A stretch of DNA of 64,000 nucleotides from Candidatus Latescibacterota bacterium. Lineage in GTDB: Bacteria > Latescibacterota > UBA2968. Numbering within the stretch: the stretch's first letter is position 1; each line of letters starts with the position of its first letter. Below are positions 32,937 through 46,513 of the stretch, one piece after another. A program made the translations under genes and the position numbers. Below the pieces are notes generated by a model. It searched no databases. It was not told the origin of the DNA and worked only from the letters and a program-made list of their open reading frames with translations. The stretch spans positions 32,001 through 96,000 of the forward strand of contig JAYODI010000008.1 of assembly GCA_038279365.1 (NCBI GenBank). The letters are read 5' to 3'.

Positions 32937-34294
32937 TGGCTTCAAGCAAAAGCCGCTTCGACTTTTCCCTCACGCGTCAAATTCTCACCCTCACCATACC
33001 TGTTGCCCTCACCCGCCAACTCGACAATGTGGTGGGCATGGCCGATATCTTTATGGTGGGCAAAATCGGCCCAGAGGCCATTTCTGCAGTCGGCATCTCA
33101 CGCACCATTGTTATGGTCATTTCGGTTACCATGATCGCCATTACAACAGGCGCTTTTGCCATGATTGCCCAAGCCATTGGGGCCCAAAATGAAGAAGGTG
33201 CGAGTTCGGCAGCCAAGCAGTCTATTTCTTTGCTTTCGGGATTCAGCATCATCCCCAGTCTCATAGGCATTATTGGCGCACCTTATTTTTTACAAGCTTT
33301 AAGCTTAGCCCCCGAAGTGGTGGTGTTGGCCACACCTTATTTGCGCGTTTTTTTTGCGGGTTCTGTCTTTATGATGCTTAACTTTGCCATTACAACCTGC
33401 TTACACGCTGCAGGAAACACACAAACACCTTTTTATATCAGCATGTTCAACAATGGTGTAAAAGTCGTATTGAGCTACCTCCTCATCTTTGGTCATTTCG
33501 GCTTTCCAGAAATGGGGGTTGTCGGTGCAGCAATTGGCGGTGTGGTTGGCCGAGGATTGGGCGTGATCATTGGATTTGGTGTTTTGTACAGTGGAAAATT
33601 TGGCATCAAGCTGTTACCATCCACCTCTTACAAACCCGACTTTGCACAAGCCAGTCGCATTCTCCGCATTGGTATTCCCGCGGCCCTACAAGGCATGTTT
33701 CGCAATGGATCTGGCGTGGTTTTTGTCAAGCTTATTGCCATGACCTCCGCATCCACTACCGCCGTTGCCGCCTTCTCCATTGGCAGCCAAATGGAACGCT
33801 TGGTGCGTCAAATATCACTGGCATTTAGTACCGCATCCACCACACTGGTTGGTCAAAGTATTGGGGCAAAAAAATTAGACGAAGCCGAAACCCGCGGATG
33901 GACAACACTCGCTTTGGCCGTTCTCACAGTATCCATCTTAGGCATTCCTATAGCCGTATTTGCCAGACCCATTCTCGGCTTTTTTACAGATGCCCCCGAC
34001 GTCATCCAAATTGGCATTTTATACTTGGTGATGATTGTGGTCTCCGAACCCTTCATGTGTGCCGCTATTACCAGTGGAGGTTCTTTGCGAGGTGCAGGTG
34101 ACAATATGCCTGCACTGTATTACACCGTTATTTCCCAGTGGGCTATTCGTTTACCCGTTGCGGCTTTTCTTGCATTTTGGATGGGCTACGATATTTACGG
34201 CATTTGGTATTCACTGGTTATCTTTTGCGCCATCCAAGGTTTTCTCACGGTTCGAAAATTTGGCCAAGGCCATTGGAAAACACGCAAAATTTAG
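32936..34294 (+). CDS. MATE family efflux transporter
   Basis: ADIFMVGKIG, AGNTQTP, MGVVGAA, LVGQSIGA, LRGAGD; about 12 TM segments. Confidence 0.9.
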   Translation: MASSKSRFDFSLTRQILTLTIPVALTRQLDNVVGMADIFMVGKIGPEAISAVGISRTIVMVISVTMIAITTGAFAMIAQAIGAQNEEGASSAAKQSISLLSGFSIIPSLIGIIGAPYFLQALSLAPEVVVLATPYLRVFFAGSVFMMLNFAITTCLHAAGNTQTPFYISMFNNGVKVVLSYLLIFGHFGFPEMGVVGAAIGGVVGRGLGVIIGFGVLYSGKFGIKLLPSTSYKPDFAQASRILRIGIPAALQGMFRNGSGVVFVKLIAMTSASTTAVAAFSIGSQMERLVRQISLAFSTASTTLVGQSIGAKKLDEAETRGWTTLALAVLTVSILGIPIAVFARPILGFFTDAPDVIQIGILYLVMIVVSEPFMCAAITSGGSLRGAGDNMPALYYTVISQWAIRLPVAAFLAFWMGYDIYGIWYSLVIFCAIQGFLTVRKFGQGHWKTRKI

Positions 34295-34320
34295 CCATCA
34301 AAAAAGCCTTTCCTCATAAT

Positions 34321-34357
34321 AAAAAACGGGTGATCCATTTTGGATCACCCGTTTTTT
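34321..34357. terminator. Bidirectional terminator
   Basis: AAAAAACGGGTGATCCA-TTT-TGGATCACCCGTTTTTT between convergent genes. Confidence 0.9.
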
Positions 34358-34380
34358 ATTTCTTCTAGTGATGTAGCAGA

Positions 34381-35154
34381 CTATTTCCCCAAAGGATTCT
34401 CACGCAATGTGGCCAAATGTTGCTGCACCATCTGTGCACCATATCCCAATACACTGCCCACATTCATAAACCGATATCCCCACCGCAATTTCTGTTGTAT
34501 TTCAGCAACATCCACCAATGTCGTACCAGCAACAAGTCCCGTACCCTCTAACCGCTTAGGTACGTCTTCCATAATTTCTTGGACTTCTTTGCTGCCTGTT
34601 TGAGTTATCTTCCCTACAGATGCAGACAAATCCATGGGCCCAACCAAAAGCACATCAAAACCCGGCACCTTTTTAATTTCGTCAATATTGTTATAAGCTT
34701 CTTGGCTTTCAAGCTGAAGCACCAAAACTGTTTCATCATTGGCACCGCGAATAGCCTCTCCCCAATCCACACCTGCCACATTGGGCCAAGAGGGTGATAT
34801 ACCTCGCTGCCCCAATGGCGGATAACGCGCATATTCCACAGCCTTGGCCGCTTCTTCAGCCGTATTAATTTGCGGCACCATCACCGCAACTGCGCCCACA
34901 TCATAGGCTTTTTTTATGAGTGCAGGGTCATTCCAAGCCACGCGAATCATCGGCGAAGAACCGCGCATGCGAATAAGAGAGGGAATCACATCCAAAGCTT
35001 CAGTAGCATAAGGGGCGTGTTCGGTATCGATCCAGACAAAATCAGGTTTGGCATTGCAGATACTGCTTGCAACCATTGCAGACGGAACAGGCAAAGCAGA
35101 GCCCAATACAATTTCACCTGCTTGCAATTTTTGTTTTAAGGGACTGGGAAACAA
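34381..35154 (-). CDS. HpcH/HpaI-family class II pyruvate aldolase
   Basis: DFVWIDTEH, IRV, YPPLGQRG, QLES, VGPMDLS. Confidence 0.9.
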   Translation of the reverse strand: MFPSPLKQKLQAGEIVLGSALPVPSAMVASSICNAKPDFVWIDTEHAPYATEALDVIPSLIRMRGSSPMIRVAWNDPALIKKAYDVGAVAVMVPQINTAEEAAKAVEYARYPPLGQRGISPSWPNVAGVDWGEAIRGANDETVLVLQLESQEAYNNIDEIKKVPGFDVLLVGPMDLSASVGKITQTGSKEVQEIMEDVPKRLEGTGLVAGTTLVDVAEIQQKLRWGYRFMNVGSVLGYGAQMVQQHLATLRENPLGK

Positions 35155-35203
35155 ATAGAACTCCTTTTAAAAGGTGAGACAAACGATAAAAGCATCCAAT
35201 GAT

Positions 35204-36457
35204 TTAATCTTTCCATAATCTTGGTACAGGTTCAGGCACCACAGTAACAGGCCAATATTCTGACGGCGCATCTTCCCATAAAGGCACTGTGCGTGCATCG
35301 CGGTCAAATATAATCTTCCCCGCTCTTAAGGTCAATCGACACACCAATCGCTCATTGGCGTCTATGCGGGTATACCCACAATCTTGTAATGGAAACACAC
35401 CCTTTTCCAAATCCAAAACAGCCACATCGGCCTCAGCCCCAATGCTTAGGGTGCCCAACTCTGGGCGATGAATGGCCTTAGCGGGTGTAACAGTTGAGCG
35501 ATAAATCACATCCTCTAAGGTCATCCCCATCGCCATACACTTCGACATGGTATCTTGCATTGAAAACACTGGCCCCATGATATTGCCCATGTGCAAATCT
35601 GTGCTGATCGAATCGGGGCCAAATCCATTCTTAATCGCCCGGGCACCATTGCGATACCAAAAACTCGCCGCACCGTGTCCCAAATCAAACCAGATGCCGC
35701 GTTCACGAGCCTCAAACATATAAGGTTCTACATTGCCCGATTCATCTACGACAGGAAATTGTCGGGCGTACACATGGGTATGAATATCACCTGGGCGCAG
35801 TTTTTCCAAAATCAACTGCGGGTAGGAACGCTCGGGTGGTCTTGGCCAAAAGTCTACCATCACAGGCATATCACACTTATTTCCCGCTTCAACCGATTTT
35901 TCCACCGATTCCCAAGCGGGATGCATCTCATCAAAAGGCAATGATGTCCAATAATGCGCCGTTTTAATGCCCACCACCACGTCGGCATGTTCTTTTGCCG
36001 CCCGAGAGGCTCCGTCTGTGTCAAACGTGCGAATGTCTTGTTCTGGTGCCCCCATACCAGGAGCCGCAATATTGATATAAGCCAAAACGCGCGTCTTTGC
36101 TTTCTCCATCACCGTTTGACGAAAATGCGTGATCTCTTGATACCCCGCCGTTCCCGTATCCACACAAGTGGTCACCCCAGAGGCCTGAAAATGTGCATCG
36201 GGGTTCAAGCTTTGTAAAAACAACCCGTCACCCAAAATCCGTGTAAAATAAGCATGAATATGAATGTCAATTAACCCAGGTGTCACCAATAAACCAGAGA
36301 CATCTACCGTTCTTATGGCATCTGCCTTTGGAATCTGCGCCTCAACACGCGCAATCTTTCCATCGAAGATCCCCACATCAAACAAACCATCCACGCCATT
36401 GGCAGGGTCAATCACACGCCCACCTTTTAATACCAAATCTAACCTTGGTTGTGCCAT
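35204..36457 (-). CDS. Amidohydrolase, dihydroorotase-like deacetylase (COG3964-type)
   Basis: PGLIDIHIH, GVTTCVDTG, VGIK, LRPGDIHTH, DLGHG, ISTDLH. Confidence 0.85.
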   Translation of the reverse strand: MAQPRLDLVLKGGRVIDPANGVDGLFDVGIFDGKIARVEAQIPKADAIRTVDVSGLLVTPGLIDIHIHAYFTRILGDGLFLQSLNPDAHFQASGVTTCVDTGTAGYQEITHFRQTVMEKAKTRVLAYINIAAPGMGAPEQDIRTFDTDGASRAAKEHADVVVGIKTAHYWTSLPFDEMHPAWESVEKSVEAGNKCDMPVMVDFWPRPPERSYPQLILEKLRPGDIHTHVYARQFPVVDESGNVEPYMFEARERGIWFDLGHGAASFWYRNGARAIKNGFGPDSISTDLHMGNIMGPVFSMQDTMSKCMAMGMTLEDVIYRSTVTPAKAIHRPELGTLSIGAEADVAVLDLEKGVFPLQDCGYTRIDANERLVCRLTLRAGKIIFDRDARTVPLWEDAPSEYWPVTVVPEPVPRLWKD

Positions 36458-36472
36458 GAACAGTATCCCTCC

Positions 36473-36494
36473 TTGCAATGCTTGAGAATTGCAA
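36473..36494. promoter_or_regulatory. Palindromic candidate operator
   Basis: TTGCAAT-N8-ATTGCAA between divergent genes, abutting the GGAGG SD of the amidohydrolase. Confidence 0.35.
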
Positions 36495-36558
36495 CACATA
36501 GCCGTATATTTAACTCACAATTCGATTACCTTCAACTCTTGATAATACAAAAAAAATT

Positions 36559-37377
36559 ATGCGAATTCTCCTCATTTTATGTGTGGTCTGTTTGGTTTCT
36601 TGCAATTATGTGACCACGCCCATTCCTCATCTTTCATCGGCAAACAATTCCCCTTCTGCCCCAGATGCCGAACCCGCATCCCAATTCACGTTCTCTATCA
36701 TCAACACATATCCGCACGACGCATCGGCATTCACCCAAGGCCTGGTTTTTGCAGACAGCATCTTTTATGAAGGCACGGGGCTTTTTGGCGCATCATCCAT
36801 TCGCAAAGTGTCTCCCACAACAGGTAAAGTTTTGCAAGTGCGCAACAATTCTTCTGCTTTTTTTGGTGAAGGCATCACCCTATTTGAAGACAAACTCTAT
36901 CAACTCACGTGGCAGGCCCAAACATGCTTTGTTTATAACAAAAATACATTTGAAATTGTTGGCCAATTTTCTTATGCCACACAAGGATGGGGCTTAACCC
37001 ACGATGGCACAAGCCTGATTATGAGCGATGGCACGGCCAATATTTATTTTCGAGACCCCACTACATTTGCAGAAACAAAACGCATTCAGGTAACAGATGA
37101 AACAGGCCCGATTAGAAACCTCAACGAACTGGAATACATCAAAGGAGCCATTTATGCCAACATCTGGCTCACTGATCGCATTGCCAAAATAGATCCGCAA
37201 ACGGGTCGTGTCATTTCTTGGATAGACCTAACCGATCTCTTGCCTCAAAATGAACGCAAGAATACCGATGCGGTTCTCAATGGCATTGCATATGACCCAC
37301 AAACAGATCGCCTATTTGTCACTGGCAAATGGTGGCCAAAGATTTTTGAAATCAAATTGGTCAATCAGACGCCATAA
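36559..37377 (+). CDS. Glutaminyl-peptide cyclotransferase (beta-propeller type), probable lipoprotein
   Basis: Lipobox LVSC; YPHD-AFTQGL, FGEG, QLTW, GWGLT, MSDG, LNELE, VLNGIA, VTGKWW. Confidence 0.93.
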   Translation: MRILLILCVVCLVSCNYVTTPIPHLSSANNSPSAPDAEPASQFTFSIINTYPHDASAFTQGLVFADSIFYEGTGLFGASSIRKVSPTTGKVLQVRNNSSAFFGEGITLFEDKLYQLTWQAQTCFVYNKNTFEIVGQFSYATQGWGLTHDGTSLIMSDGTANIYFRDPTTFAETKRIQVTDETGPIRNLNELEYIKGAIYANIWLTDRIAKIDPQTGRVISWIDLTDLLPQNERKNTDAVLNGIAYDPQTDRLFVTGKWWPKIFEIKLVNQTP

Positions 37378-37411
37378 ACCCGTTGCCAAACAAATCCACT
37401 CGTTGAAAGAC

Positions 37412-37440
37412 TTGACAAACACGCCGACACACCCTATCCT
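37412..37440 (+). promoter_or_regulatory. sigma70-type promoter
   Basis: TTGACA-17 nt-TATCCT, then a GGAGG SD. Confidence 0.6.
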
Positions 37441-37463
37441 CGCCAACAACAGAGGAGGTATTT

Positions 37464-38582
37464 ATGTCCGCAACACTTGAAGCACCCATATCAGACACCC
37501 CAACAGATCTTCAAAACAAAACGTTTACCATCGATTGTGACGTGCATCACTCCGTAGGCAGCACAGAGATGCTCTATCCTTATATGCCACGTCACTTTGT
37601 CGAATACATGAAAGACTTTGGGCCCATGATGCCCAAATTGGGCTACACCAATATGCCAGGTAATGGCGCCCGACACGATCTGTGGGAAGACCCCAAAATC
37701 AACCCTGGGTCAACGCCCAGTGTGTGCATCGAAAAACACCTTAACCGCTATGACATTGACTATGCCATTCTAACCGGTGGGCCTTATGCCGCTGCGGTGC
37801 ATCCCAACCCCGACTATGCCATGGCTTATTGTCGCGCCTTTAACGATTACACACGTGATCATTGGATTGCCACAGATCCCCGTTTTCGTGCCTCCATACA
37901 CATCGCGCCCACAGACCCACAACTTGCCGCTGAAGAAATTGACAGATTAGGCCCCGACCCCAATTTTGTACAGGTCATGATACCTGGTGGTACGCGCCTC
38001 CCATTTGGAAACAGATTTTATTATCCGATTTACGAAGCCTGTGAACGACATGGGTTGCCCGTTTCTTGCCATTTTGGAGGCGAAGGACAAGGCATTGCAG
38101 GCCCACCCACTTCAGCGGGTTATCCAACCTACTACCTCGAAATGCGCTTGGCCCGGCCCCAAAATGCAATGGCCCATGTAACCAGCCTTGTGGTAGAAGG
38201 TGTGTTCGAAAAATTTCCCAACTTCCACTTTATCTTTATTGAACAATGTACCTTTTGGCTACCCGGTCTTATGTGGCATCTCGATTCCGATTGGCGTGCT
38301 TTACGCGATTACACCCCTTGGGTCAAACGCTTACCCAGCGAATACATTCGCGATCACATCCGTTTGGGCACACAACCCTTTCCCGATTTGCCAAATGGTC
38401 TGAAAGACCTACCAACATATCTCGAATGGTTACACGCCAAAGACACTTTGGTTTTTGCCAGTGATTACCCGCATTGGGATTGGGACGAACCCCAAAACTT
38501 TCTCAATGGCATAGACGATACTTTGCGCAGTCGCATCTTAGGGGGCAACATGGCCGAAATACTGAAACTGGATGCCAAATGA
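37464..38582 (+). CDS. Amidohydrolase_2-fold metalloenzyme (candidate dinuclear oxygenase)
   Basis: IDCDVHH, YYPIYEAC, CHFGG, GVFEKFP, FIE, FASDYPHWD. Confidence 0.85.
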   Translation: MSATLEAPISDTPTDLQNKTFTIDCDVHHSVGSTEMLYPYMPRHFVEYMKDFGPMMPKLGYTNMPGNGARHDLWEDPKINPGSTPSVCIEKHLNRYDIDYAILTGGPYAAAVHPNPDYAMAYCRAFNDYTRDHWIATDPRFRASIHIAPTDPQLAAEEIDRLGPDPNFVQVMIPGGTRLPFGNRFYYPIYEACERHGLPVSCHFGGEGQGIAGPPTSAGYPTYYLEMRLARPQNAMAHVTSLVVEGVFEKFPNFHFIFIEQCTFWLPGLMWHLDSDWRALRDYTPWVKRLPSEYIRDHIRLGTQPFPDLPNGLKDLPTYLEWLHAKDTLVFASDYPHWDWDEPQNFLNGIDDTLRSRILGGNMAEILKLDAK

Positions 38583-38938
38583 AACATGTTATTGCCACAA
38601 CAACCGAATTGCCACCTGGCACGCGCAAAATTGTCAAAATAGAAAACCGAGAAATCGGCGTATTCAATGTCAAGGGTGAATATTTGGCCATTCGCAACAT
38701 TTGCCCACACCGACATGGTCCCCTGTGCAAAGGGCGCACCCGCCCACTTGTGGTTTCAAATGGCGTGCTCGATATTGGTTTTGAACGAGAAGATGAAATT
38801 ATCAAGTGCCCTTGGCATCAGTGGGAATTTGATTTGCGAACGGGCAATTCCATTACAGATGACAATTTGCGGGTAAGAACCTATGCAGTAAGAGTAGAAA
38901 ACGAAAACATTGTTATTGACCTTCATTCACGGAATTAA
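38579..38938 (+). CDS. Rieske [2Fe-2S] ferredoxin
   Basis: CPHRHGPL...CPWHQWEFD; ATGA overlap with the upstream gene. Confidence 0.93.
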   Translation: MKHVIATTTELPPGTRKIVKIENREIGVFNVKGEYLAIRNICPHRHGPLCKGRTRPLVVSNGVLDIGFEREDEIIKCPWHQWEFDLRTGNSITDDNLRVRTYAVRVENENIVIDLHSRN

Positions 38939-38939
38939 A

Positions 38940-39686
38940 ATGGCCCATCTAACACCTGAAGACAAAGCCTTTTTCAAAAAAAATGGCTACCTTGTGAAAC
39001 ACGACTTGCTCACCGACAAGCAATTAAACGACGCATTGGATGTGGTTTGGGATAACATAGACTGCGACCGCAACGATCCAAAAAGTTGGATCAATGCGGG
39101 CCCCAATCACCCAGCCATAGGCGCACACCCAGCCATACGATCCACACATTATGAAACCCCTCTTTTTGAAATGGCCGAAGAACTTGTTGGCAAGGGCAAG
39201 CTCAACAGCCATACAAATCCTGGCCCACATTTTCGTTATCCAACAGGGGAATCAGATTGGGAATTGCCCCGTCATGGACATCTCGATGGCTATTACACCC
39301 CCACCAACGGCGTGCCAGAAGGAACCGTAGGACGTTTTCAAGTCGGTGCATCCTTTTATCTAAACAACGTGGTTCACAAAGGTGGGGCCTTTACGGTGTG
39401 GCCAGGCACACACATCCAAGCAGGCGAATACTTCAAAACACACTCTTTGCTCAGTTTCAAGGGGGGCGATGCCAACAAAACCTTCACCATGCCAGACCCG
39501 GTCGAAATCACGGGTGGTCCGGGCACTGTTTGCTTTTGGCATGGCCAATTGATGCACACCGGTGCAAAAAACTGTGCTGAAGAAATTCGTATGGCACTCA
39601 TCACCCGCTTTAGCCGCAACGATATAAACGATATACTTTTCGAATTTCCCGAAGATATTTGGGCCTATTACGAAGGCATCAACTGA
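38940..39686 (+). CDS. Phytanoyl-CoA dioxygenase (PhyH)-family Fe(II)/2OG oxygenase
   Basis: FFKKNGYLV, HLD, GAFTVWPGTH, LMH, downstream Arg. Confidence 0.85.
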   Translation: MAHLTPEDKAFFKKNGYLVKHDLLTDKQLNDALDVVWDNIDCDRNDPKSWINAGPNHPAIGAHPAIRSTHYETPLFEMAEELVGKGKLNSHTNPGPHFRYPTGESDWELPRHGHLDGYYTPTNGVPEGTVGRFQVGASFYLNNVVHKGGAFTVWPGTHIQAGEYFKTHSLLSFKGGDANKTFTMPDPVEITGGPGTVCFWHGQLMHTGAKNCAEEIRMALITRFSRNDINDILFEFPEDIWAYYEGIN

Positions 39687-39760
39687 TGTCTTGCTTTACC
39701 AAAACCACCATCTAAAACATTAGAATTGTAAACTCCAATTCTCAACAGGAGCCATCCTTT

Positions 39761-40534
39761 ATGAACCTCAGTTTTAGTACTACAGCTTGCCCCAAAGCAG
39801 AACTTCCCGAAGCCTTAGAAATTTGTAAAGCTGCCGGATTTGACAAAATTGAATTGTTTCGCACCTGGACAGAGAGTTCACCCGTTCACGACAACACATC
39901 AGTGCCCATGGTGCGTGATCGCCTCAATCAGGCAGGGGTTACCCTCACAGGCTTAAACATTCGCAACATCACAGGCCGCAAAGCCGATTCAGATGAACGC
40001 GACTTAGGTTATAACCTTCGCCAAATCACTTGGGACATTCACCTTGCACGTGCCCTCCATCTCACGTCGGCCAACACCAAAGGTGGACAACGCACAGAAG
40101 AAGCCCTTGCTGACCTGATAGAGGGCGTTAATACCACCCTTGAACGCATGGAAAACTTCACACTCAACTTGGGCAATCACGCAGGCAACCGGCTCCAAGG
40201 GCTCGAAGACTATCAGGCCGTCATGCCCCATGTTCACGAACGTGCCAAAATCTTGCTCGACACCGGCCACTTACTCACCGCAGGTGAAGATATTTTACGT
40301 TTTGCAGAAACTTTTGCAGATCGCATTGGCTTGGTACACCTTCGCGACCAAAAAGGTGACACACCCGTACCCTTTGGTGAGGGAGATTTGCCATTTGAAG
40401 AACTCATCCAAATCCTCAAAGGTGTAGGGTATGATGGCACATTGGTCATTGAACTTGAAAAGATCACTTGGGGGGCCCCAGCAGAAGCCGCCGCCACAGC
40501 AAAAGCATACATTGAAAATCTTTTAGCCTCTTAA
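39761..40534 (+). CDS. Sugar-phosphate isomerase/epimerase (xylose isomerase-like TIM barrel)
   Basis: AAGFDKIEL, LDTGH, VHLRD, PFGEG, GYDGTLVIE. Confidence 0.85.
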   Translation: MNLSFSTTACPKAELPEALEICKAAGFDKIELFRTWTESSPVHDNTSVPMVRDRLNQAGVTLTGLNIRNITGRKADSDERDLGYNLRQITWDIHLARALHLTSANTKGGQRTEEALADLIEGVNTTLERMENFTLNLGNHAGNRLQGLEDYQAVMPHVHERAKILLDTGHLLTAGEDILRFAETFADRIGLVHLRDQKGDTPVPFGEGDLPFEELIQILKGVGYDGTLVIELEKITWGAPAEAAATAKAYIENLLAS

Positions 40535-40543
40535 AAATAACCT

Positions 40544-41791
40544 ATGGCCCATGCCCTCGGTCGTCATGTTCTGATCGAACTCCACGACTGCCAACAACAT
40601 CTCAATGACGTAACAGCCATTGAAACACACATGATTGCAGCCGCCCATGCTGCTGGTGCCACCGTCATCAACACCACCTTCCATCACTTTGCTCCCATGG
40701 GTGTATCGGGCGTGGTGGTCATTCAAGAAAGTCATTTGGCCATTCACACATGGCCAGAGCAGCGCTTTGCAGCCATAGATATTTTCACCTGTGGTCGCAA
40801 TATTGATCCTTGGCGTGCCGTCTCTTATCTAAAGCGTGCCTTTCAGGCACAAAGAGGAGATGCGCGCGAAATTCCAAGAGGAGAAGTGCCCAATACCCCA
40901 ACAGCCCCTTATCCTTCCGCCTCACAATCACACCCCATTCAACACAATCTTTGGTTTACCGAAAGATCTGACAACCTGGCACTCTCATTGCGCCACACGG
41001 GTGTGGCCTTTCAAACCCAGTCTCCCTACCAAAAAATAGAGGTGCTCAATACCGTAGGATATGGGCGAATGTTGGTGCTTGACGGACAAATTATGTGCAC
41101 CGAAAAAGACGAATGCGTGTATCATGAAATGCTTGTGCATGTACCCATCCTGTTGCACCCCGCCCCACAAAAAATACTCGTCATAGGTGGCGGTGATGGT
41201 GGTGCCGTTAGAGAACTGATACGCCATCAACACATCCAACATATCGACTTGGTCGAAATTGATGAGAGGGTGGTGCAAACCGCCCGCGATTATTTACCCA
41301 CTTTGTCCAACCAACTGGACAACAAACGCGTTCATATCCACATACAAGATGGCACACAATTTATTAAAACAGCACAAGAGCATACGTATGATATTATTCT
41401 CATAGATATCCCTGGCGAAGAAACATTACAATCTCAAAAATTCTACCAAGCCATCTATCGCGCACTTAAAGAAGATGGTATCATGGTGGCCCAAATTGCC
41501 CCGCCCGTATTCTTCAATCCCAATTTCCCCAAAACAATCCAAGCCCAACAACACGTTTTCCAAACCGTACATCCGTATTTTGCATTTATACCCACATACG
41601 CCACCGGCATGTTGAGTTTCTCATTGGCAAGTAAAAACCATATTCAACCCAACCCAATATTCGATGAACAAAAAGCACAGCAATTCACCGCCGCCCACCC
41701 ACTTCAATACTACACAACAGATATTCACAAAGCGAGTTTTGCAATTCCACCCTTTGTGCAAACCCTTTTGACTTCTGGAGAACCCTCTTGA
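40544..41791 (+). CDS. speD-speE: Fused S-adenosylmethionine decarboxylase proenzyme (SpeD) and aminopropyltransferase (SpeE)
   Basis: N-terminal: GRH, GVSGVVVIQESHLAIHTWPE, DIFTCG. C-terminal: SPYQKI, LVLDG, YHEML, ILVIGGGDGG, VEID. Confidence 0.92.
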   Translation: MAHALGRHVLIELHDCQQHLNDVTAIETHMIAAAHAAGATVINTTFHHFAPMGVSGVVVIQESHLAIHTWPEQRFAAIDIFTCGRNIDPWRAVSYLKRAFQAQRGDAREIPRGEVPNTPTAPYPSASQSHPIQHNLWFTERSDNLALSLRHTGVAFQTQSPYQKIEVLNTVGYGRMLVLDGQIMCTEKDECVYHEMLVHVPILLHPAPQKILVIGGGDGGAVRELIRHQHIQHIDLVEIDERVVQTARDYLPTLSNQLDNKRVHIHIQDGTQFIKTAQEHTYDIILIDIPGEETLQSQKFYQAIYRALKEDGIMVAQIAPPVFFNPNFPKTIQAQQHVFQTVHPYFAFIPTYATGMLSFSLASKNHIQPNPIFDEQKAQQFTAAHPLQYYTTDIHKASFAIPPFVQTLLTSGEPS

Positions 41792-42582
41792 AACTCACCT
41801 TTCTTGGAACTTGTAGTGGCACAGAACCGATGCCAGATCGTTTTCATACCTCTTATGTGATTGAACACAACGGTGGTGTTTATTGGTTTGATGCAGGCGA
41901 AGGATGCTCTTACAATGCCCATCTGTTGGGCATTGACATTCTCGCCATACAATCACTCTGTTTTTCACATTGCCACCTTGATCATGTGGGAGGGCTGGTT
42001 AACCTATTGGGAACCATTCGCAAACTTGAAGGCCGAAATGAAGACCCCACTCACAGCATTGCAGGACGAACCATTCCCGTTCGCATTCCCAATTTGCATG
42101 TATGGGAAGGTGCTCTGAGCGTACTTCAAGGCCCATCCAATTCGTGCCATCTCCCATTTGAAAGCGATGTTCAAACCTATTCAGATGGCGTCATATTGGA
42201 TCAAAACGGTCTCAAAGTGACGGCATTACACAACCGCCACCTTGGTGAACCACCACCAGGCACACCTTGGCAATCCTTCTCTTTTCGCATTGAAACAGCC
42301 ACGCACACCATCGTCTCATCAGGTGACATCAAACACGTCAGCGAAGTCGTTCCACTCATTGACAAAGGATGTGACCTTTTTCTTATGGAAACAGGCCACC
42401 ACCAAGTGGATGAAGTGTGTACCTACCTCATGGAAAACGATGTGCCATTTGGTCGTTTGGGATTTTTTCACCACGGACGAGCCATTCTCGCCGATCCACA
42501 AGGAGAATGTGCCAAAGCCCAAAGCATTGTTGGAGATCGCGTGTTTGTTGCCGATGACGGCATGGTTATTCATTTGACCTAA
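41788..42582 (+). CDS. Metallo-beta-lactamase fold hydrolase (RNase Z-like N-terminus)
   Basis: LTFLGT, FDAGEG, SHCHLDHVGG, SGD. Confidence 0.85.
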   Translation: MKLTFLGTCSGTEPMPDRFHTSYVIEHNGGVYWFDAGEGCSYNAHLLGIDILAIQSLCFSHCHLDHVGGLVNLLGTIRKLEGRNEDPTHSIAGRTIPVRIPNLHVWEGALSVLQGPSNSCHLPFESDVQTYSDGVILDQNGLKVTALHNRHLGEPPPGTPWQSFSFRIETATHTIVSSGDIKHVSEVVPLIDKGCDLFLMETGHHQVDEVCTYLMENDVPFGRLGFFHHGRAILADPQGECAKAQSIVGDRVFVADDGMVIHLT

Positions 42583-42722
42583 CAACAAGCTCTTGGCCAT
42601 CATTGTGATGCTTTTTATAAATCTCACCACGATCACAACATATGTTTTATGTCTGCTTGACACCATCTGTTGCGGAAGGTATTTTTCAACAGTTAAACAG
42701 ATCACTCACAAGGGGACATCTT

Positions 42723-42980
42723 ATGACAGCCACCCACGTAGCGACCTTAAAAGAAACGCTTCAAAACATGTTTGAAGCCATTGAAAAAAAAGAGAACATT
42801 GCCGAACACATTTTAAAACTTGATGCGATCCAAAAAGAAGTCGCAAACAGTGCCCCCGCACAACTGCGTCACTTTCTTGAGCGCCGCAGCTACACCAAAG
42901 CGCTCGAATATCTCCAAACGGGCATTGTTATTGATGACCCCAACAGACCCGATTGTGAAGATGATGCGCACCCACATTGA
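42723..42980 (+). CDS. Small hypothetical protein
   Basis: AGGGG SD and an upstream TTGACA-17-TATTTT; helical sequence with QLRHFLERRSYTKALEYL. Confidence 0.75.
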   Translation: MTATHVATLKETLQNMFEAIEKKENIAEHILKLDAIQKEVANSAPAQLRHFLERRSYTKALEYLQTGIVIDDPNRPDCEDDAHPH

Positions 42981-43031
42981 TCTTTTCCTATCTGTGCATT
43001 TTTAAATTTCCCCATCCTTGAGGAGTATGCC

Positions 43032-43337
43032 ATGCCTATCCAAACGCGCACCGATGTAAAAGGCCTGTCAAAATATTTTTTAGCCGACGGAGCTACCAAC
43101 GACAAATTGCGCCTCCATATATCAGAAGTTGGCCCCGAACAACGCTCTCACCCACCGCACACCCATGAAGGGCAAGAAATATTCTATATCCTTCAAGGAC
43201 AAGGCGAGGTTGAAGTGGCTGACGAAACGTTCCTCGTCAACGAAGGCGAAGCCCTACAAGTGGATTGCCAAATTCCACACGGCATCAAAAATGCAGGCAG
43301 TGGCAACATGAAATATGCGGTTATTATTGCCAAATAA
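43032..43337 (+). CDS. Cupin domain protein
   Basis: HPPHTHEGQEIFYILQGQG...PHGIKN. Confidence 0.9.
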   Translation: MPIQTRTDVKGLSKYFLADGATNDKLRLHISEVGPEQRSHPPHTHEGQEIFYILQGQGEVEVADETFLVNEGEALQVDCQIPHGIKNAGSGNMKYAVIIAK

Positions 43338-43377
43338 CGATTCAATCTCAAACAAAATCCATCAGAGAGGATGGTTC

Positions 43378-44145
43378 ATGATCAACAGCATCCGAGAACG
43401 CATACTCAACCGCGAGCTCTTGACGGGCACATTTTTGAGTTTGGGAAACAGCATCACCGTAGAAATAGCGGGCAACAGCGGTTTCGATTGGCTCTTACTC
43501 GATGTGGAACACGGCAGTGGCAGTCATTCTCACCTGATTCATCAAATCCAAGCCACCGGTGCCACACCTGCAGCACCTTTTGTGCGCATCGAAGACAACC
43601 AAACCGCTCGTTTTAAACGCGTGCTCGATTTGGGTGCATCTGGCATCATGATTCCTTACGTGCGCAGTGTTGAAGATGCCGAACAAGCCGTTTCGGCCAT
43701 GCGTTATCCCCCAAGAGGAATTCGCGGTGTTGCCAAACTCAGCCGAGGATCGGGTTTTGGTGCCAATTTTGAAACATACTTTGAAAAAGGGCACGAACTG
43801 CTCACCACCGTCATTCAAATTGAAACAGCAGAAGCCCTCAAAGATATCGATCGTATTGCCGCCGTTGATGGCGTAGATGTACTTTTTGTTGGCCCAATGG
43901 ATCTCACCGTGAATATGGGGATTAGAGAACAATTTGATCACCCAGATTACATCACTGCCAGAAAAAAAATCGCCGACACCGCCAAAAATGCAGGCAAAGC
44001 CGCAGGTATCCTGCTACAAAATACCGACCAAATACCCGAAGCCATTGAACAGGGGTATACATTTGTCGCTATCGGATCAGATATTGCGTTGGTCAATGCA
44101 GGCATGCGCCAACTCTCATCAGCCTTCGACACCTATCGAAAATAA
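43378..44145 (+). CDS. HpcH/HpaI-family class II pyruvate aldolase
   Basis: GFDWLLLDVEHG, YPPRGIRG, QIET, LFVGPMDL, IGSD. Confidence 0.92.
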   Translation: MINSIRERILNRELLTGTFLSLGNSITVEIAGNSGFDWLLLDVEHGSGSHSHLIHQIQATGATPAAPFVRIEDNQTARFKRVLDLGASGIMIPYVRSVEDAEQAVSAMRYPPRGIRGVAKLSRGSGFGANFETYFEKGHELLTTVIQIETAEALKDIDRIAAVDGVDVLFVGPMDLTVNMGIREQFDHPDYITARKKIADTAKNAGKAAGILLQNTDQIPEAIEQGYTFVAIGSDIALVNAGMRQLSSAFDTYRK

Positions 44146-44148
44146 ACC

Positions 44149-45261
44149 ATGTCACAAACTTTTGATGTGATCATCATTGGTGGAGGAGCCATCGGTTGTA
44201 CAACCGCCTATTTCCTTACAGAAAAAGGCCTCAGCGTTGCCTTATTTGACAAAGGAAAACTTGGCCATGAAGCATCATGGGCATCTGCTGGAATGATTGG
44301 GCCTGCTTCTGCTCCAGGTATTCCGTGGTATCAAGAAACAACCACCTTATCCAAACAGCTTTACGATGAACTCGATCAGCGTCTATTCGGCATCACCGGT
44401 CGCAAAATAGGTTATGGTGGTCAAGGCATGCTCACCATTGCCACCAACGAACAAGAAGCACACATCCTACGCAGAGAAATTGCACACTTACAATCGTCTC
44501 ACATTTCAGCCGAATTGCTAACCGGTCAAGAAGCACAAAAACAAGAGCCCGCTCTGCCACAAGAAACCATTGCTGCCATTTGGCTCAAAGACAATCGCTA
44601 TCTTGATGCAAGAACTTATACCGAAGTTATTGCTCAGGCCGCGTTTCTGCAAAGTGCTCAGTTTTTTTCTGGGCACCCCATTCAGAGACTTCTGCGAGAT
44701 AAAAACACCGTCATTGGCGTTCAAACCCATACAGAATCATTCTATGCCCAAACAGTCATCAATTCCGCAGGCGCTTGGGCGGGGCAAATAGATGCCCAAC
44801 TTACCCTCCCAATTGAGCCCTTACACGGTCAAATCATGGCCTTATCCCCACCCGCTTGTGGGTTGCGTCACAACATCATGAAAGCAAACACCTGGGGGTA
44901 TGCAACCCCACGAGATGATGGACGCGTGCTCATTGGGGCCACAGAAGACGAATGGGGCTATCAAAAAAAAATCACCCCCGATGGTCTTTCGCTTCTGGGG
45001 GCGATTATACGCAATATTCTGCCGTGTCTTAAGGCTTGTGAAGTCATCGATATTTGGTCGGGTTTACGTCCTGCATCTCCCGACGGTCTGCCCACCATCG
45101 GCCCAGATCCCAGGTTAGATGGCGGGTATTTGTGGGCCGCTGGGCATACGGCCTCAGGCATGATGCAAGCTCCCGCTACTGCCGTTGTTCTCACCGATTT
45201 GGTCTTAGGTGTTCAACCGCGTATCAACACCCATCAGGTTCGTGTAGATCGTTTTTTATAA
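44149..45261 (+). CDS. FAD-dependent D-amino-acid/glycine oxidase (ThiO/DadA family)
   Basis: IIGGGAIG, ASWASAGMI, AGAW, WSGLRP, PDGLP, GH. Confidence 0.88.
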   Translation: MSQTFDVIIIGGGAIGCTTAYFLTEKGLSVALFDKGKLGHEASWASAGMIGPASAPGIPWYQETTTLSKQLYDELDQRLFGITGRKIGYGGQGMLTIATNEQEAHILRREIAHLQSSHISAELLTGQEAQKQEPALPQETIAAIWLKDNRYLDARTYTEVIAQAAFLQSAQFFSGHPIQRLLRDKNTVIGVQTHTESFYAQTVINSAGAWAGQIDAQLTLPIEPLHGQIMALSPPACGLRHNIMKANTWGYATPRDDGRVLIGATEDEWGYQKKITPDGLSLLGAIIRNILPCLKACEVIDIWSGLRPASPDGLPTIGPDPRLDGGYLWAAGHTASGMMQAPATAVVLTDLVLGVQPRINTHQVRVDRFL

Positions 45262-45269
45262 AAGGGATC

Positions 45270-46412
45270 TTATTCAAACGCTTTGTGCAAACGATCCATA
45301 ATATGCATCAACAAATTTTGTGTTGTTTCTTCAAAGTCTGTATTTTCATAAGCCAAAATTTTATGCTCTTTACCAATAGACAAAATATGTTGTTGAATTT
45401 GTAAAATGGTGTCTATATTTTCAATATAACGATGTGCTGAACGTTTTTCCGCCTCCAGACCACGTCGCTTAAAACGTTCGGCATAGTGTTTCGCGTCTTC
45501 AATGTACAAATTGACCCAAACAAAAACAGCATCATTCAAAAAAGGTTTGAGATCGATTAAGTCAGGCAAGAGGTGAACGCCATCAATAATAATACTGTCA
45601 TTTTCTTCTAATGCGCGTTCAACAATGGCTTTGACTCCCACACCAACGCGCATAACCTGTTCTCTAAAGGCCGCAATGACAGGATGGGGATCCCCTACAG
45701 AAACAGCCCCCGCAACTTTCCAAGCCGTATAAGAGGAAGCATGAATAGCCGGCATGAGATCTGGCGAAATCATCAAGCGCATAATTTGCCGAATCGCATC
45801 GGTTGATACCACACGCGAAATACGAAGCTGATTGGCCAATGCAACACTCACAGATGTTTTACCAACACCACTAGCTCCCCCAATCAAAACAACCAAAGGT
45901 TTGTGGCGATCTTCATTTCGAAAGCGAAACCATGTGCGATAGCGTTCTACAAACGCTTCACCACCTTCCTTTTTGAGCAATTGCGTAATGCGCTTAACCA
46001 AATTTTTTCGAGCAATCTCTTCTTGATCAGTACTTAACAAATCGACTTTCACACGCCGAGCAATTTCATGAGCCAAGTCGTGGTCTAAACCTGTTGCATG
46101 CAACGAATCGGCCAACCGCTCCTGAGAAAAAAGTGTGCGATTTTCACCATCTTCTACAAATATTTGTCGGGCAGTGGGTTCCCAAAACACACCATCGCCA
46201 ACAGCGCGCGCACCAAACTCTTTGGTGGCAAAAGTGCGCACCATTTCAGCCATCTCTTTGGCGGGTATGTCTTTCACCTTCTGCAAACCACGGCGCACAC
46301 GATCTGCAACACCATAGGCTTCTTGAAATGTGAACCCATGTTCAATGAGATAATGTGCCAACATGCCACGTAAAAAAGGAATGCGCTTCTTACCATCAAC
46401 AATGGTGGCCAA
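45270..46412 (-). CDS. 2-phosphoglycerate kinase-like P-loop kinase with two N-terminal ATP-cone-like repeats
   Basis: IPFLRGML and FSQERLADSL...GL repeats; LIGGASGVGKT, VVSTDAIRQIMR, IHASSY, IIDGVHLLP. Confidence 0.85.
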   Translation of the reverse strand: MATIVDGKKRIPFLRGMLAHYLIEHGFTFQEAYGVADRVRRGLQKVKDIPAKEMAEMVRTFATKEFGARAVGDGVFWEPTARQIFVEDGENRTLFSQERLADSLHATGLDHDLAHEIARRVKVDLLSTDQEEIARKNLVKRITQLLKKEGGEAFVERYRTWFRFRNEDRHKPLVVLIGGASGVGKTSVSVALANQLRISRVVSTDAIRQIMRLMISPDLMPAIHASSYTAWKVAGAVSVGDPHPVIAAFREQVMRVGVGVKAIVERALEENDSIIIDGVHLLPDLIDLKPFLNDAVFVWVNLYIEDAKHYAERFKRRGLEAEKRSAHRYIENIDTILQIQQHILSIGKEHKILAYENTDFEETTQNLLMHIMDRLHKAFE

Positions 46413-46513
46413 TAGGGTTCTCCTTAAAAGATAAAATTGCTAATTATATCCTTTAATTTTAAGCCTGTTATAAAATTCAGTCAAGCAACCGCAGTTCTCC
46501 AATGGAGTCTGGT

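Follow-up and report, generated by a model that had tools for sequence, protein, structure and literature searches.

A run of four co-oriented genes in an uncultured bacterium raises two questions: why a protein of family PF04909, whose members are usually named "amidohydrolase" in databases, is encoded directly beside a stand-alone Rieske ferredoxin, and whether the dioxygenase-like and isomerase-like genes that follow act on the same substrate. The locus occupies positions 37,412-40,534 of the window, which is the whole analysed stretch of 64,000 nucleotides (nt) from a Candidatus Latescibacterota bacterium (assembly GCA_038279365.1, contig JAYODI010000008.1, positions 32,001 to 96,000 of the forward strand). 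The initial annotation proposed a single-gene dinuclear oxygenase of the PtmU3/AibH2 class with a Rieske partner, working in tandem with a second oxygenase, and regarded the set as the best candidate for new biochemistry in the window. The answer reached here has two parts. With a probability of roughly 0.82, the PF04909 and Rieske proteins together make up a dinuclear oxygenase like SfbO/SfbR, to which they are closely related, in the amidohydrolase-related oxygenase (ARO) class. It is just as probable, judging from gene order across genomes, that the PhyH dioxygenase gene and the triosephosphate isomerase (TIM)-barrel gene form a conserved pair of their own, placed directly downstream of the ARO and Rieske genes in the window lineage. 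The claim of new biochemistry is not supported, since both the ARO class and the orthologous SfbO/SfbR family are already published (PMC10811679 in 2024; PMC13154177 in 2026), and the window pair is a further member.

Identity of the PF04909 protein

The first gene (37,464-38,582, plus strand) encodes an SfbO-type ARO of 372 amino acids (aa) that matches PF04909 with E = 1.1e-29; Pfam profile matches were scored for the proteins of the window, and NCBIfam/TIGR profiles were also compared. Against all PDB sequences, the best match is SfbO (8SM6, E = 1.6e-176), followed by 8SM7-9 and AibH1H2, whereas decarboxylases are found only at E > 1e-11. The alignment with 8SM6 has 235 identical residues at 349 aligned positions, and Foldseek gives 67% identity. 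The AlphaFold2 model of the protein has a mean predicted local distance difference test (pLDDT) score of 84, with values below 50 at residues 1-13 and 61-68, and it superposes on 8SM6 with template modelling (TM) scores of 0.91/0.96 and a root-mean-square deviation of 1.6 Å. Three other published AROs (8SM7-9) follow with TM scores of 0.83-0.87 at 33-41% identity, AibH1H2 with about 0.85 at 30-33%, PtmU3 with 0.71 at 18%, and decarboxylases with 0.6-0.7 at 16-19%. The protein thus groups with the AROs and not with the decarboxylases, and the proposal of a single-gene dinuclear oxygenase of the PtmU3/AibH2 class is borne out, with SfbO as its closest structural relative.

SfbO comes from Litorilinea aerophila and was found through PF04909 genes lying beside small Rieske genes, like those of AibH1H2/AibG (PMC10811679). 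Its dinuclear site has three His and three carboxylate ligands, and sulfate is bound through N67, R232, R235, Y280, and W341 (PMC10811679). The enzyme carries out an O2-dependent N-dealkylation, by C-H hydroxylation, of MES (2-(N-morpholino)ethanesulfonic acid) and PIPES (piperazine-N,N'-bis(2-ethanesulfonic acid)) to give sulfoacetaldehyde; relative to Fe2, Mn/Fe gives a more than 7-fold higher activity, and PIPES was judged by its authors to be an unlikely native substrate (PMC10811679). SfbO reportedly crystallises as a homotetramer (PMC13154177). The pair is deposited under UniProt A0A540VG95/A0A540VG88 and PDB 8SM6, 8SMA, 9BU9, and 9BUA (Liu et al., JACS 2024, 2026). No paper naming the native SfbO substrate was found in the open-access literature, and the phrase "native substrate" is absent from PMC13154177.

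Two motifs reportedly define the ARO superfamily, D-x-H near the N terminus, on the first beta strand (site 1 ligands), and D-x-P-H-x-[D/E] towards the C terminus (site 2 ligands) (PMC13154177). Both are present in the window protein: D26-V27-H28 lies on strand 23-27 of the model, and the second-site motif D334-Y-P-H337-W338-D339 is preceded by at least about 200 residues. The sequence motifs described in the initial annotation are likewise all found in this protein, namely IDCDVHH at residues 23-29, a central His (H203, in HFG), FIE (with E260), and SDYPHWD at residues 333-339. Relatives were collected by scanning one genome per species, which returned 280, and the best 80 loci (60-86% identity) were kept; as labelled, they are mostly Latescibacterota and Caldilineaceae/Chloroflexota, with Gemmatimonadota, Opitutales, and Trueperaceae in addition. 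Residue conservation was read from an alignment of 80 SfbO-type sequences (79 loci and the window) and from a second alignment of 32 rows. Among the 80 sequences, no or almost no variation is seen at D26, V27, H28, N63, H203, R228, R231, E260, D334, P336, H337, W338, D339, and W340; the 32-row alignment agrees, and D334-Y-P-H337-W-D339 is invariant in all of its rows. H203 and E260, which do not vary and have the same residues opposite them in the 8SM6 alignment, are putative metal ligands, as the central His and the bridging Glu, respectively. In a quick tree with Shimodaira-Hasegawa-like approximate likelihood ratio (SH-aLRT) support only, the 80 sequences form one clade that includes both L. 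aerophila sequences (L056 and L061) and lies far from the paralogs in the window's own genome.

By position, the SfbO numbers run 4 ahead of those of the window protein in the N-terminal part and 3 ahead in the C-terminal part. The pocket and interface residues N63, R228, R231, W338, and W340 are accordingly the equivalents of SfbO N67, R232, R235, W341, and W343. The invariant pocket of one Asn, two Arg, and one Trp argues for an anionic substrate group throughout the clade. Mn-preferring, low-potential AROs reportedly have a hydrophobic gamma1, a hydrophilic gamma2, and an aromatic gamma4 residue (Table 1, PMC13154177). In the window protein, gamma1 is V27 (hydrophobic) and gamma4 is W338 (aromatic), while gamma2 is placed at T104, a position inferred from a stretch identical to that of SfbO, which has Thr there. 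Because V27, T104, and W338 fit this rule, the window ARO is predicted to be of the Mn/Fe-preferring, low-potential type. What would be annotated here as an "amidohydrolase" and a lone Rieske protein is, judged by sequence, a two-component Mn/Fe oxygenase. A standing misannotation is thereby corrected, and the SfbO/SfbR family is extended into an uncultured phylum.

Rieske partner and predicted complex

The second gene (38,579-38,938, plus strand) encodes an SfbR-type Rieske [2Fe-2S] ferredoxin of 119 aa (PF00355, E = 1.4e-15; PF13806). Its start codon at 38,579 overlaps the stop codon of the ARO gene as ATGA. All 32 aligned relatives have the ligands C42-x-H44 and C77-x-x-H80, and likewise W79 and W82, without change. 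In 77 of the 80 loci, a Rieske gene is found 3' of the ARO gene and co-oriented with it: in 56 the two overlap or are separated by at most 10 nt, in 19 the gap is 11-400 nt, and in L028 and L035 the Rieske gene is about 7.7 kb away, past an ABC transporter. No Rieske gene was found in L003, L042, and L045, the last two of which end within 2 kb of the ARO gene.

Co-folding of the ARO with the Rieske protein was run three times, with three controls and custom alignments. The scores are 0.74, 0.73, and 0.76 (median 0.74), while the best control scores 0.00. When the tool was calibrated, 58 of 80 solved complexes and 2 of 110 mismatched pairs attained such a score; these counts apply only approximately here because custom alignments were supplied. 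At least 79% of the contacts are common to the runs, and the partner has a pLDDT of at least 90. The predicted interface joins ARO residues 64-65, 70-72, 308, 338-340, 342, and 345 to Rieske residues 44-48, 51-53, and 78-81. W340-W79 and W338-Q81 rank with the most confident pairs and show the geometry of the published SfbO:SfbR model. In that system, the gamma5 residue Trp343 of SfbO reportedly faces and stacks on Trp85 of SfbR, according to an AlphaFold3 model, mutants, and electron paramagnetic resonance (PMC13154177). The co-fold supports binding between the modelled ARO and Rieske proteins, and the inference of an ARO with a Rieske partner is considered correct because of the homology to SfbO, the linkage in 77 of 80 loci, the ATGA overlap, and the co-fold score of 0.74 against 0.00.

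The same evidence bears on a rival reading, in which the PF04909 gene codes for an ordinary amidohydrolase or decarboxylase that is not redox-active and the Rieske protein works with some other enzyme, for instance as a small subunit like NirD. This is very improbable. The customary database name of the family and a sub-threshold NirD match of the Rieske protein (TIGR02378; 68.5 bits, cut-off 74.65) would suit it, but the D-x-H and D-x-P-H-x-D motifs are reportedly absent from characterised PF04909 hydrolases and decarboxylases (PMC13154177), and the two-thirds identity is to a biochemically proven oxygenase, far above that to any decarboxylase compared. Moreover, the Rieske gene is tightly linked to the ARO gene in 75 of the 80 loci, and the metal-site loop is where the interface is predicted.

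Proposed mechanism and comparison with known systems

For the SfbO-like pair, the metal content, O2 chemistry, nature of the substrate, and path of the electrons may be inferred as follows. The TIM-barrel ARO would bind two metals, Mn/Fe by the published sequence rules with Fe2 also possible, through D26, H28, the central His, the bridging Glu, D334, and H337. An anionic group of the substrate, of the sulfonate, sulfate, or phosphonate type, would be held by N63, R228, R231, and W338, and the reduced dinuclear cluster would activate O2 and hydroxylate a C-H bond of the substrate. The Rieske ferredoxin, reduced by a flavoprotein encoded elsewhere, would dock with its [2Fe-2S] loops on W338-D339-W340 of the ARO and pass electrons singly. 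The ARO and Rieske genes are translationally coupled and probably read from a conserved promoter at 37,412-37,440.

The window pair resembles SfbO/SfbR in its metal-ligand motifs, four anion-pocket residues, gamma4/gamma5 Trp pair, and small Rieske gene directly downstream, and both SfbO and the window ARO are orphans as to native substrate. In contrast, SfbO is from Chloroflexota whereas the nearest relatives of the window ARO are labelled Latescibacterota, and the window neighbours are PhyH, TIM-barrel, and SpeH/SpeE genes, where the L. aerophila loci have ABC sugar-type transporter genes. AibH1H2/AibG (2-aminoisobutyrate hydroxylase; 8FUL-8FUO, 6M1W) shares the ARO fold, the Mn/Fe cofactor, and a Rieske gene in the operon; however, it is a heterodimer of two PF04909 subunits with a different pocket, where the window enzyme is a single gene and only 30-33% identical. 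PtmU3 and DitZ (diiron, high-potential; 6OMP, 8UYR) share the superfamily and the dinuclear-site motifs. On the other hand, they reportedly have a hydrophilic gamma1 and a non-aromatic gamma4 and are usually without a Rieske partner (PMC13154177), and their identity to the window ARO is 18% at a TM score of about 0.7.

PhyH and TIM-barrel genes as a conserved pair

The third gene (38,940-39,686, plus strand) encodes a PhyH-class Fe(II)/2-oxoglutarate (2OG) dioxygenase of 248 aa, which matches PF05721 weakly, with 27 bits against a cut-off of 22. The triad residues H114, D116, and H206 and the 2OG-binding R217 are invariant in 42 sequences. The AlphaFold2 model has a pLDDT of 92, and its nearest folds are GriE, proline hydroxylase H11, SnoK, KanJ, EctD, and MysH, with a Foldseek probability of 1.00 to GriE, KanJ, and EctD. 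These enzymes share with the window protein the double-stranded beta-helix and the HxD...H and Arg residues, whereas the identity is 13-17% and the TM score 0.5-0.63. By its residues and model, the gene is a genuine Fe/2OG oxygenase of an uncharacterised PhyH subfamily. The fourth gene (39,761-40,534, plus strand) encodes a xylose-isomerase-like TIM barrel of 257 aa (PF01261, E = 3.1e-27) with weak matches only, to ketose 3-epimerases and IolE.

In a phylum sample of 121 genomes, including the window's own (G000), SfbO-type AROs (E ≤ 1e-100) occur in 33 genomes, TIM orthologs in 58, and PhyH orthologs of the window subfamily (best match at least 51% identical) in 40. By comparison of coordinates, the TIM gene lies directly beside the PhyH gene in 37 of the 40 PhyH-positive genomes; the other three (G087, G095, and G107) have no TIM match at the threshold. 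Twenty-eight TIM-positive genomes are without an SfbO-type ARO, and G001, G009, and G066 among them were checked at the DNA level. In 25 of the 33 ARO-positive genomes, all of the window's own family, no more than about 3.5 kb separates the TIM gene from the ARO gene. The two genes are 2.1 Mb apart on one chromosome in G120 and on different contigs in G007, G074, G105, and G116, and the ARO-positive genomes G015, G076, and G087 have no TIM match. Among the 80 loci, PhyH genes of the window type (cluster 86) are found only in L001, L002, L021, L022, and L029, and the TIM barrel only in 22 Latescibacterota-like loci.

A same-genus genome (G001, 90% complete) provides a natural deletion. Its contig C141 is syntenic with the window from the MatE gene to the DAO gene, and the interval between the glutaminyl cyclase and PhyH genes holds only an open reading frame (ORF) of 86 aa (L084:3978-4238), in which ARO residues ~22-80 continue in frame into the ~21 C-terminal residues of the Rieske protein. 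The promoter, the PhyH gene (81% identical), the TIM gene (86%), and the downstream genes are retained. A search of G001 with the window ARO as query turned up no other ARO of the SfbO type. Because this scar fuses ARO and Rieske while PhyH and TIM are intact, the former two appear to have been lost as one unit without the latter.

These data decide how the initial annotation's tandem second oxygenase is to be judged. A four-gene pathway, in which the ARO, the PhyH dioxygenase, and the TIM barrel act successively on one substrate, is unlikely, although it draws support from the arrangement in the window, where the genes share one strand with gaps of 1 and 74 nt and no convincing terminator was found between them. 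The order ARO-Rieske-PhyH-TIM is also kept in L001, L002, G002, and G005, and in L021, L022, and L029 with a reductase inserted, and other PhyH subfamilies flank SfbO-type AROs elsewhere (13 loci for cluster 19, 14 for cluster 11, and three for cluster 159). Nevertheless, the cluster 86 PhyH gene is linked to the TIM gene rather than to the ARO gene from genome to genome, the two modules are unlinked in G120 and on separate contigs in the four genomes named above, and PhyH adjoining TIM survives the joint loss of ARO and Rieske in G001. Furthermore, 45 of the 80 loci, including both of L. aerophila, have no PhyH gene within 4 kb of the ARO gene.

The abundance of PhyH genes is relevant as well. 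PF05721 has 147 matches in the 6.03-Mb genome of the window, and the counts in 12 relatives range from 37 to more than 113, compared with 0 in 14 well-known control genomes; chance adjacency to a PhyH gene is common because the family is hugely expanded in the lineage. PhyH genes also form tandem arrays in the window's own genome, for example at C74:4556-16150 and C149:42908-59023. The favoured reading is therefore that the apparent four-gene oxygenase operon consists of juxtaposed independent modules, with PhyH-TIM probably co-transcribed with ARO-Rieske yet not dependent on it. It cautions against over-reading gene order in PhyH-rich genomes.

Recurrence of PhyH genes near SfbO-type AROs

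PhyH genes of several subfamilies are found near the ARO genes of other clades. Cluster 19 (EctD/GriE-like) lies 40-211 nt upstream of the ARO gene in 13 loci, cluster 11 (EvdO2-like) directly after the Rieske gene in 14, cluster 24 upstream and divergent in 13, and cluster 159 at a distance of 1.6-4 kb in three Chloroflexota loci. One explanation is that PhyH enzymes were recruited beside SfbO-type AROs at least four times (clusters 86, 19, 11/24, and 159) and that the native substrate is a small polar anionic metabolite. Such a metabolite, broken down by successive hydroxylations, could be an osmolyte of the N-alkylated sulfonate or phosphonate type or a derivative of an amino sugar. If true, the Latescibacterota operons would give the context for working out the substrate of SfbO-type enzymes. 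This explanation is unlikely.

Several observations weigh against the reading of an SfbO-type pair followed by a separate PhyH-TIM module. For the oxygenase, the low-confidence stretch 61-68 of the model holds N63 and part of the predicted interface, chain numbering gave no position in the 8SM6 alignment for Y280 of the SfbO pocket, and the co-fold score may owe something to likeness to known complexes of Rieske ferredoxins with oxygenases. Moreover, no reductase gene was found in the window operon, as the initial annotation had supposed for these four genes. As to separateness, the start of the PhyH gene is one base past the Rieske stop codon and no convincing terminator was found between the genes, which speaks against full independence of the modules. 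A PhyH gene lies within 4 kb of the ARO gene in 35 of the 80 loci, including non-orthologous subfamilies in other clades, although related loci are not independent. Finally, the deletion in G001 lies on a metagenome-assembled contig and may be a population variant or an assembly artefact.

Promoter and gene arrangement

Upstream of the ARO gene, a promoter-like site of the sigma-70 type, TTGACA-17 nt-TATCCT, lies at 37,412-37,440 on the plus strand (10 of 12 consensus matches), and a ribosome-binding site, GAGGAGG, follows just after it at 37,452-37,458. The consensus scan finds 15 sites against 12.6 ± 3.6 in shuffled sequences, which is chance level, and as evidence by itself it was dropped. 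The -35 box, the -10 box, and AGGAGG are kept in four of four aligned upstream regions (the window, L001, L002, and L084), while the spacer diverges. Because the boxes and the ribosome-binding site are conserved across genomes in this way, the site is taken as a probable promoter, in line with the operon's own promoter in the initial annotation. The gene order, the ATGA overlap, the 1-nt spacing, and the TIM barrel which that annotation described are all as it had them. No Rfam element, riboswitches included, was found at E ≤ 1 in 34,000-46,500.

Candidate reductases and other ARO systems

Two flavoproteins are relevant to the reduction of the Rieske protein. In L021, L022, and L029, a Pyr_redox_2 flavoprotein gene sits between the Rieske and PhyH genes (cluster 155; 309 aa, thioredoxin-reductase-like, for example L029:12496-13425), and it is likely an in-operon reductase. 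Its best match in the window's own genome is a lipoamide-dehydrogenase-like gene at 1,335-2,744 of the window, which at 25% identity is not a close homolog. The second flavoprotein belongs to a complete-looking second ARO system on contig C79 (3262-6795 of L082, which is G000:C79:9000-21000; minus strand). This ARO has the motifs DIH...DFPHWD and its best PDB match is 8SM7 (E = 5e-114); the gene order is ARO, Rieske, a Pyr_redox_2/NDH2_C flavoprotein, a gene of the 2-phosphosulfolactate phosphatase family (PF04029), and glutamate dehydrogenase. The NDH2-like flavoprotein is a candidate for a shared reductase.

The surroundings of the ARO genes were compared by clustering the ORFs of the 80 loci and annotating about 180 representatives. 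No consistent metabolic neighbourhood was found among these loci: apart from the Rieske gene, no neighbour is common beyond single clades, and no substrate can be deduced. The Chloroflexota contexts are mixed, with ABC and TRAP transporters, GFO/IDH/MocA oxidoreductases, helicases, and toxin-antitoxin genes. Leads to the substrate of SfbO are the deletion of ARO and Rieske in the sister genome, the in-operon reductase of the relatives, and the recurring PhyH neighbours.

Downstream of the TIM gene, a 415-aa fusion protein (40,544-41,791) joins an S-adenosylmethionine decarboxylase of the SpeH type to spermidine synthase (SpeE). A role for it in the pathway was rejected, as no other SpeH occurs in the genome, its scores exceed the NCBIfam equivalog cut-offs, and it adjoins the locus within one family only. 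Most related loci have SpeH as a gene of its own, about 138 aa long, unlike the fusion in the window.

Further PF04909 genes were seen in the same genome and in relatives. At 4319-6791 of L083 (G000:C110:3000-14000), on the minus strand, two PF04909 genes lie in tandem, only one of which has D-x-P-H-x-D, with no Rieske gene nearby and with GH95, BNR/sialidase-like, SDR, aldo-keto reductase, and MR_MLE genes as neighbours; the pair may form a heteromer like AibH1H2 within a cluster for glycan degradation. Among genomes of genus g5 in the phylum sample, many relatives have a second ARO, 47-49% identical to the window protein (E ~1e-107 to 1e-109; for example G086:C1:3743977-3745035). This paralogous lineage is absent from the window's own genome, whose closest paralog is 40% identical. 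Elsewhere in the window, a protein of 380 aa at 45,270-46,412 on the minus strand (cluster 8) has an ATP-cone and a P-loop kinase-like domain with no clear family, and it is kept at the same position in 17 related loci.

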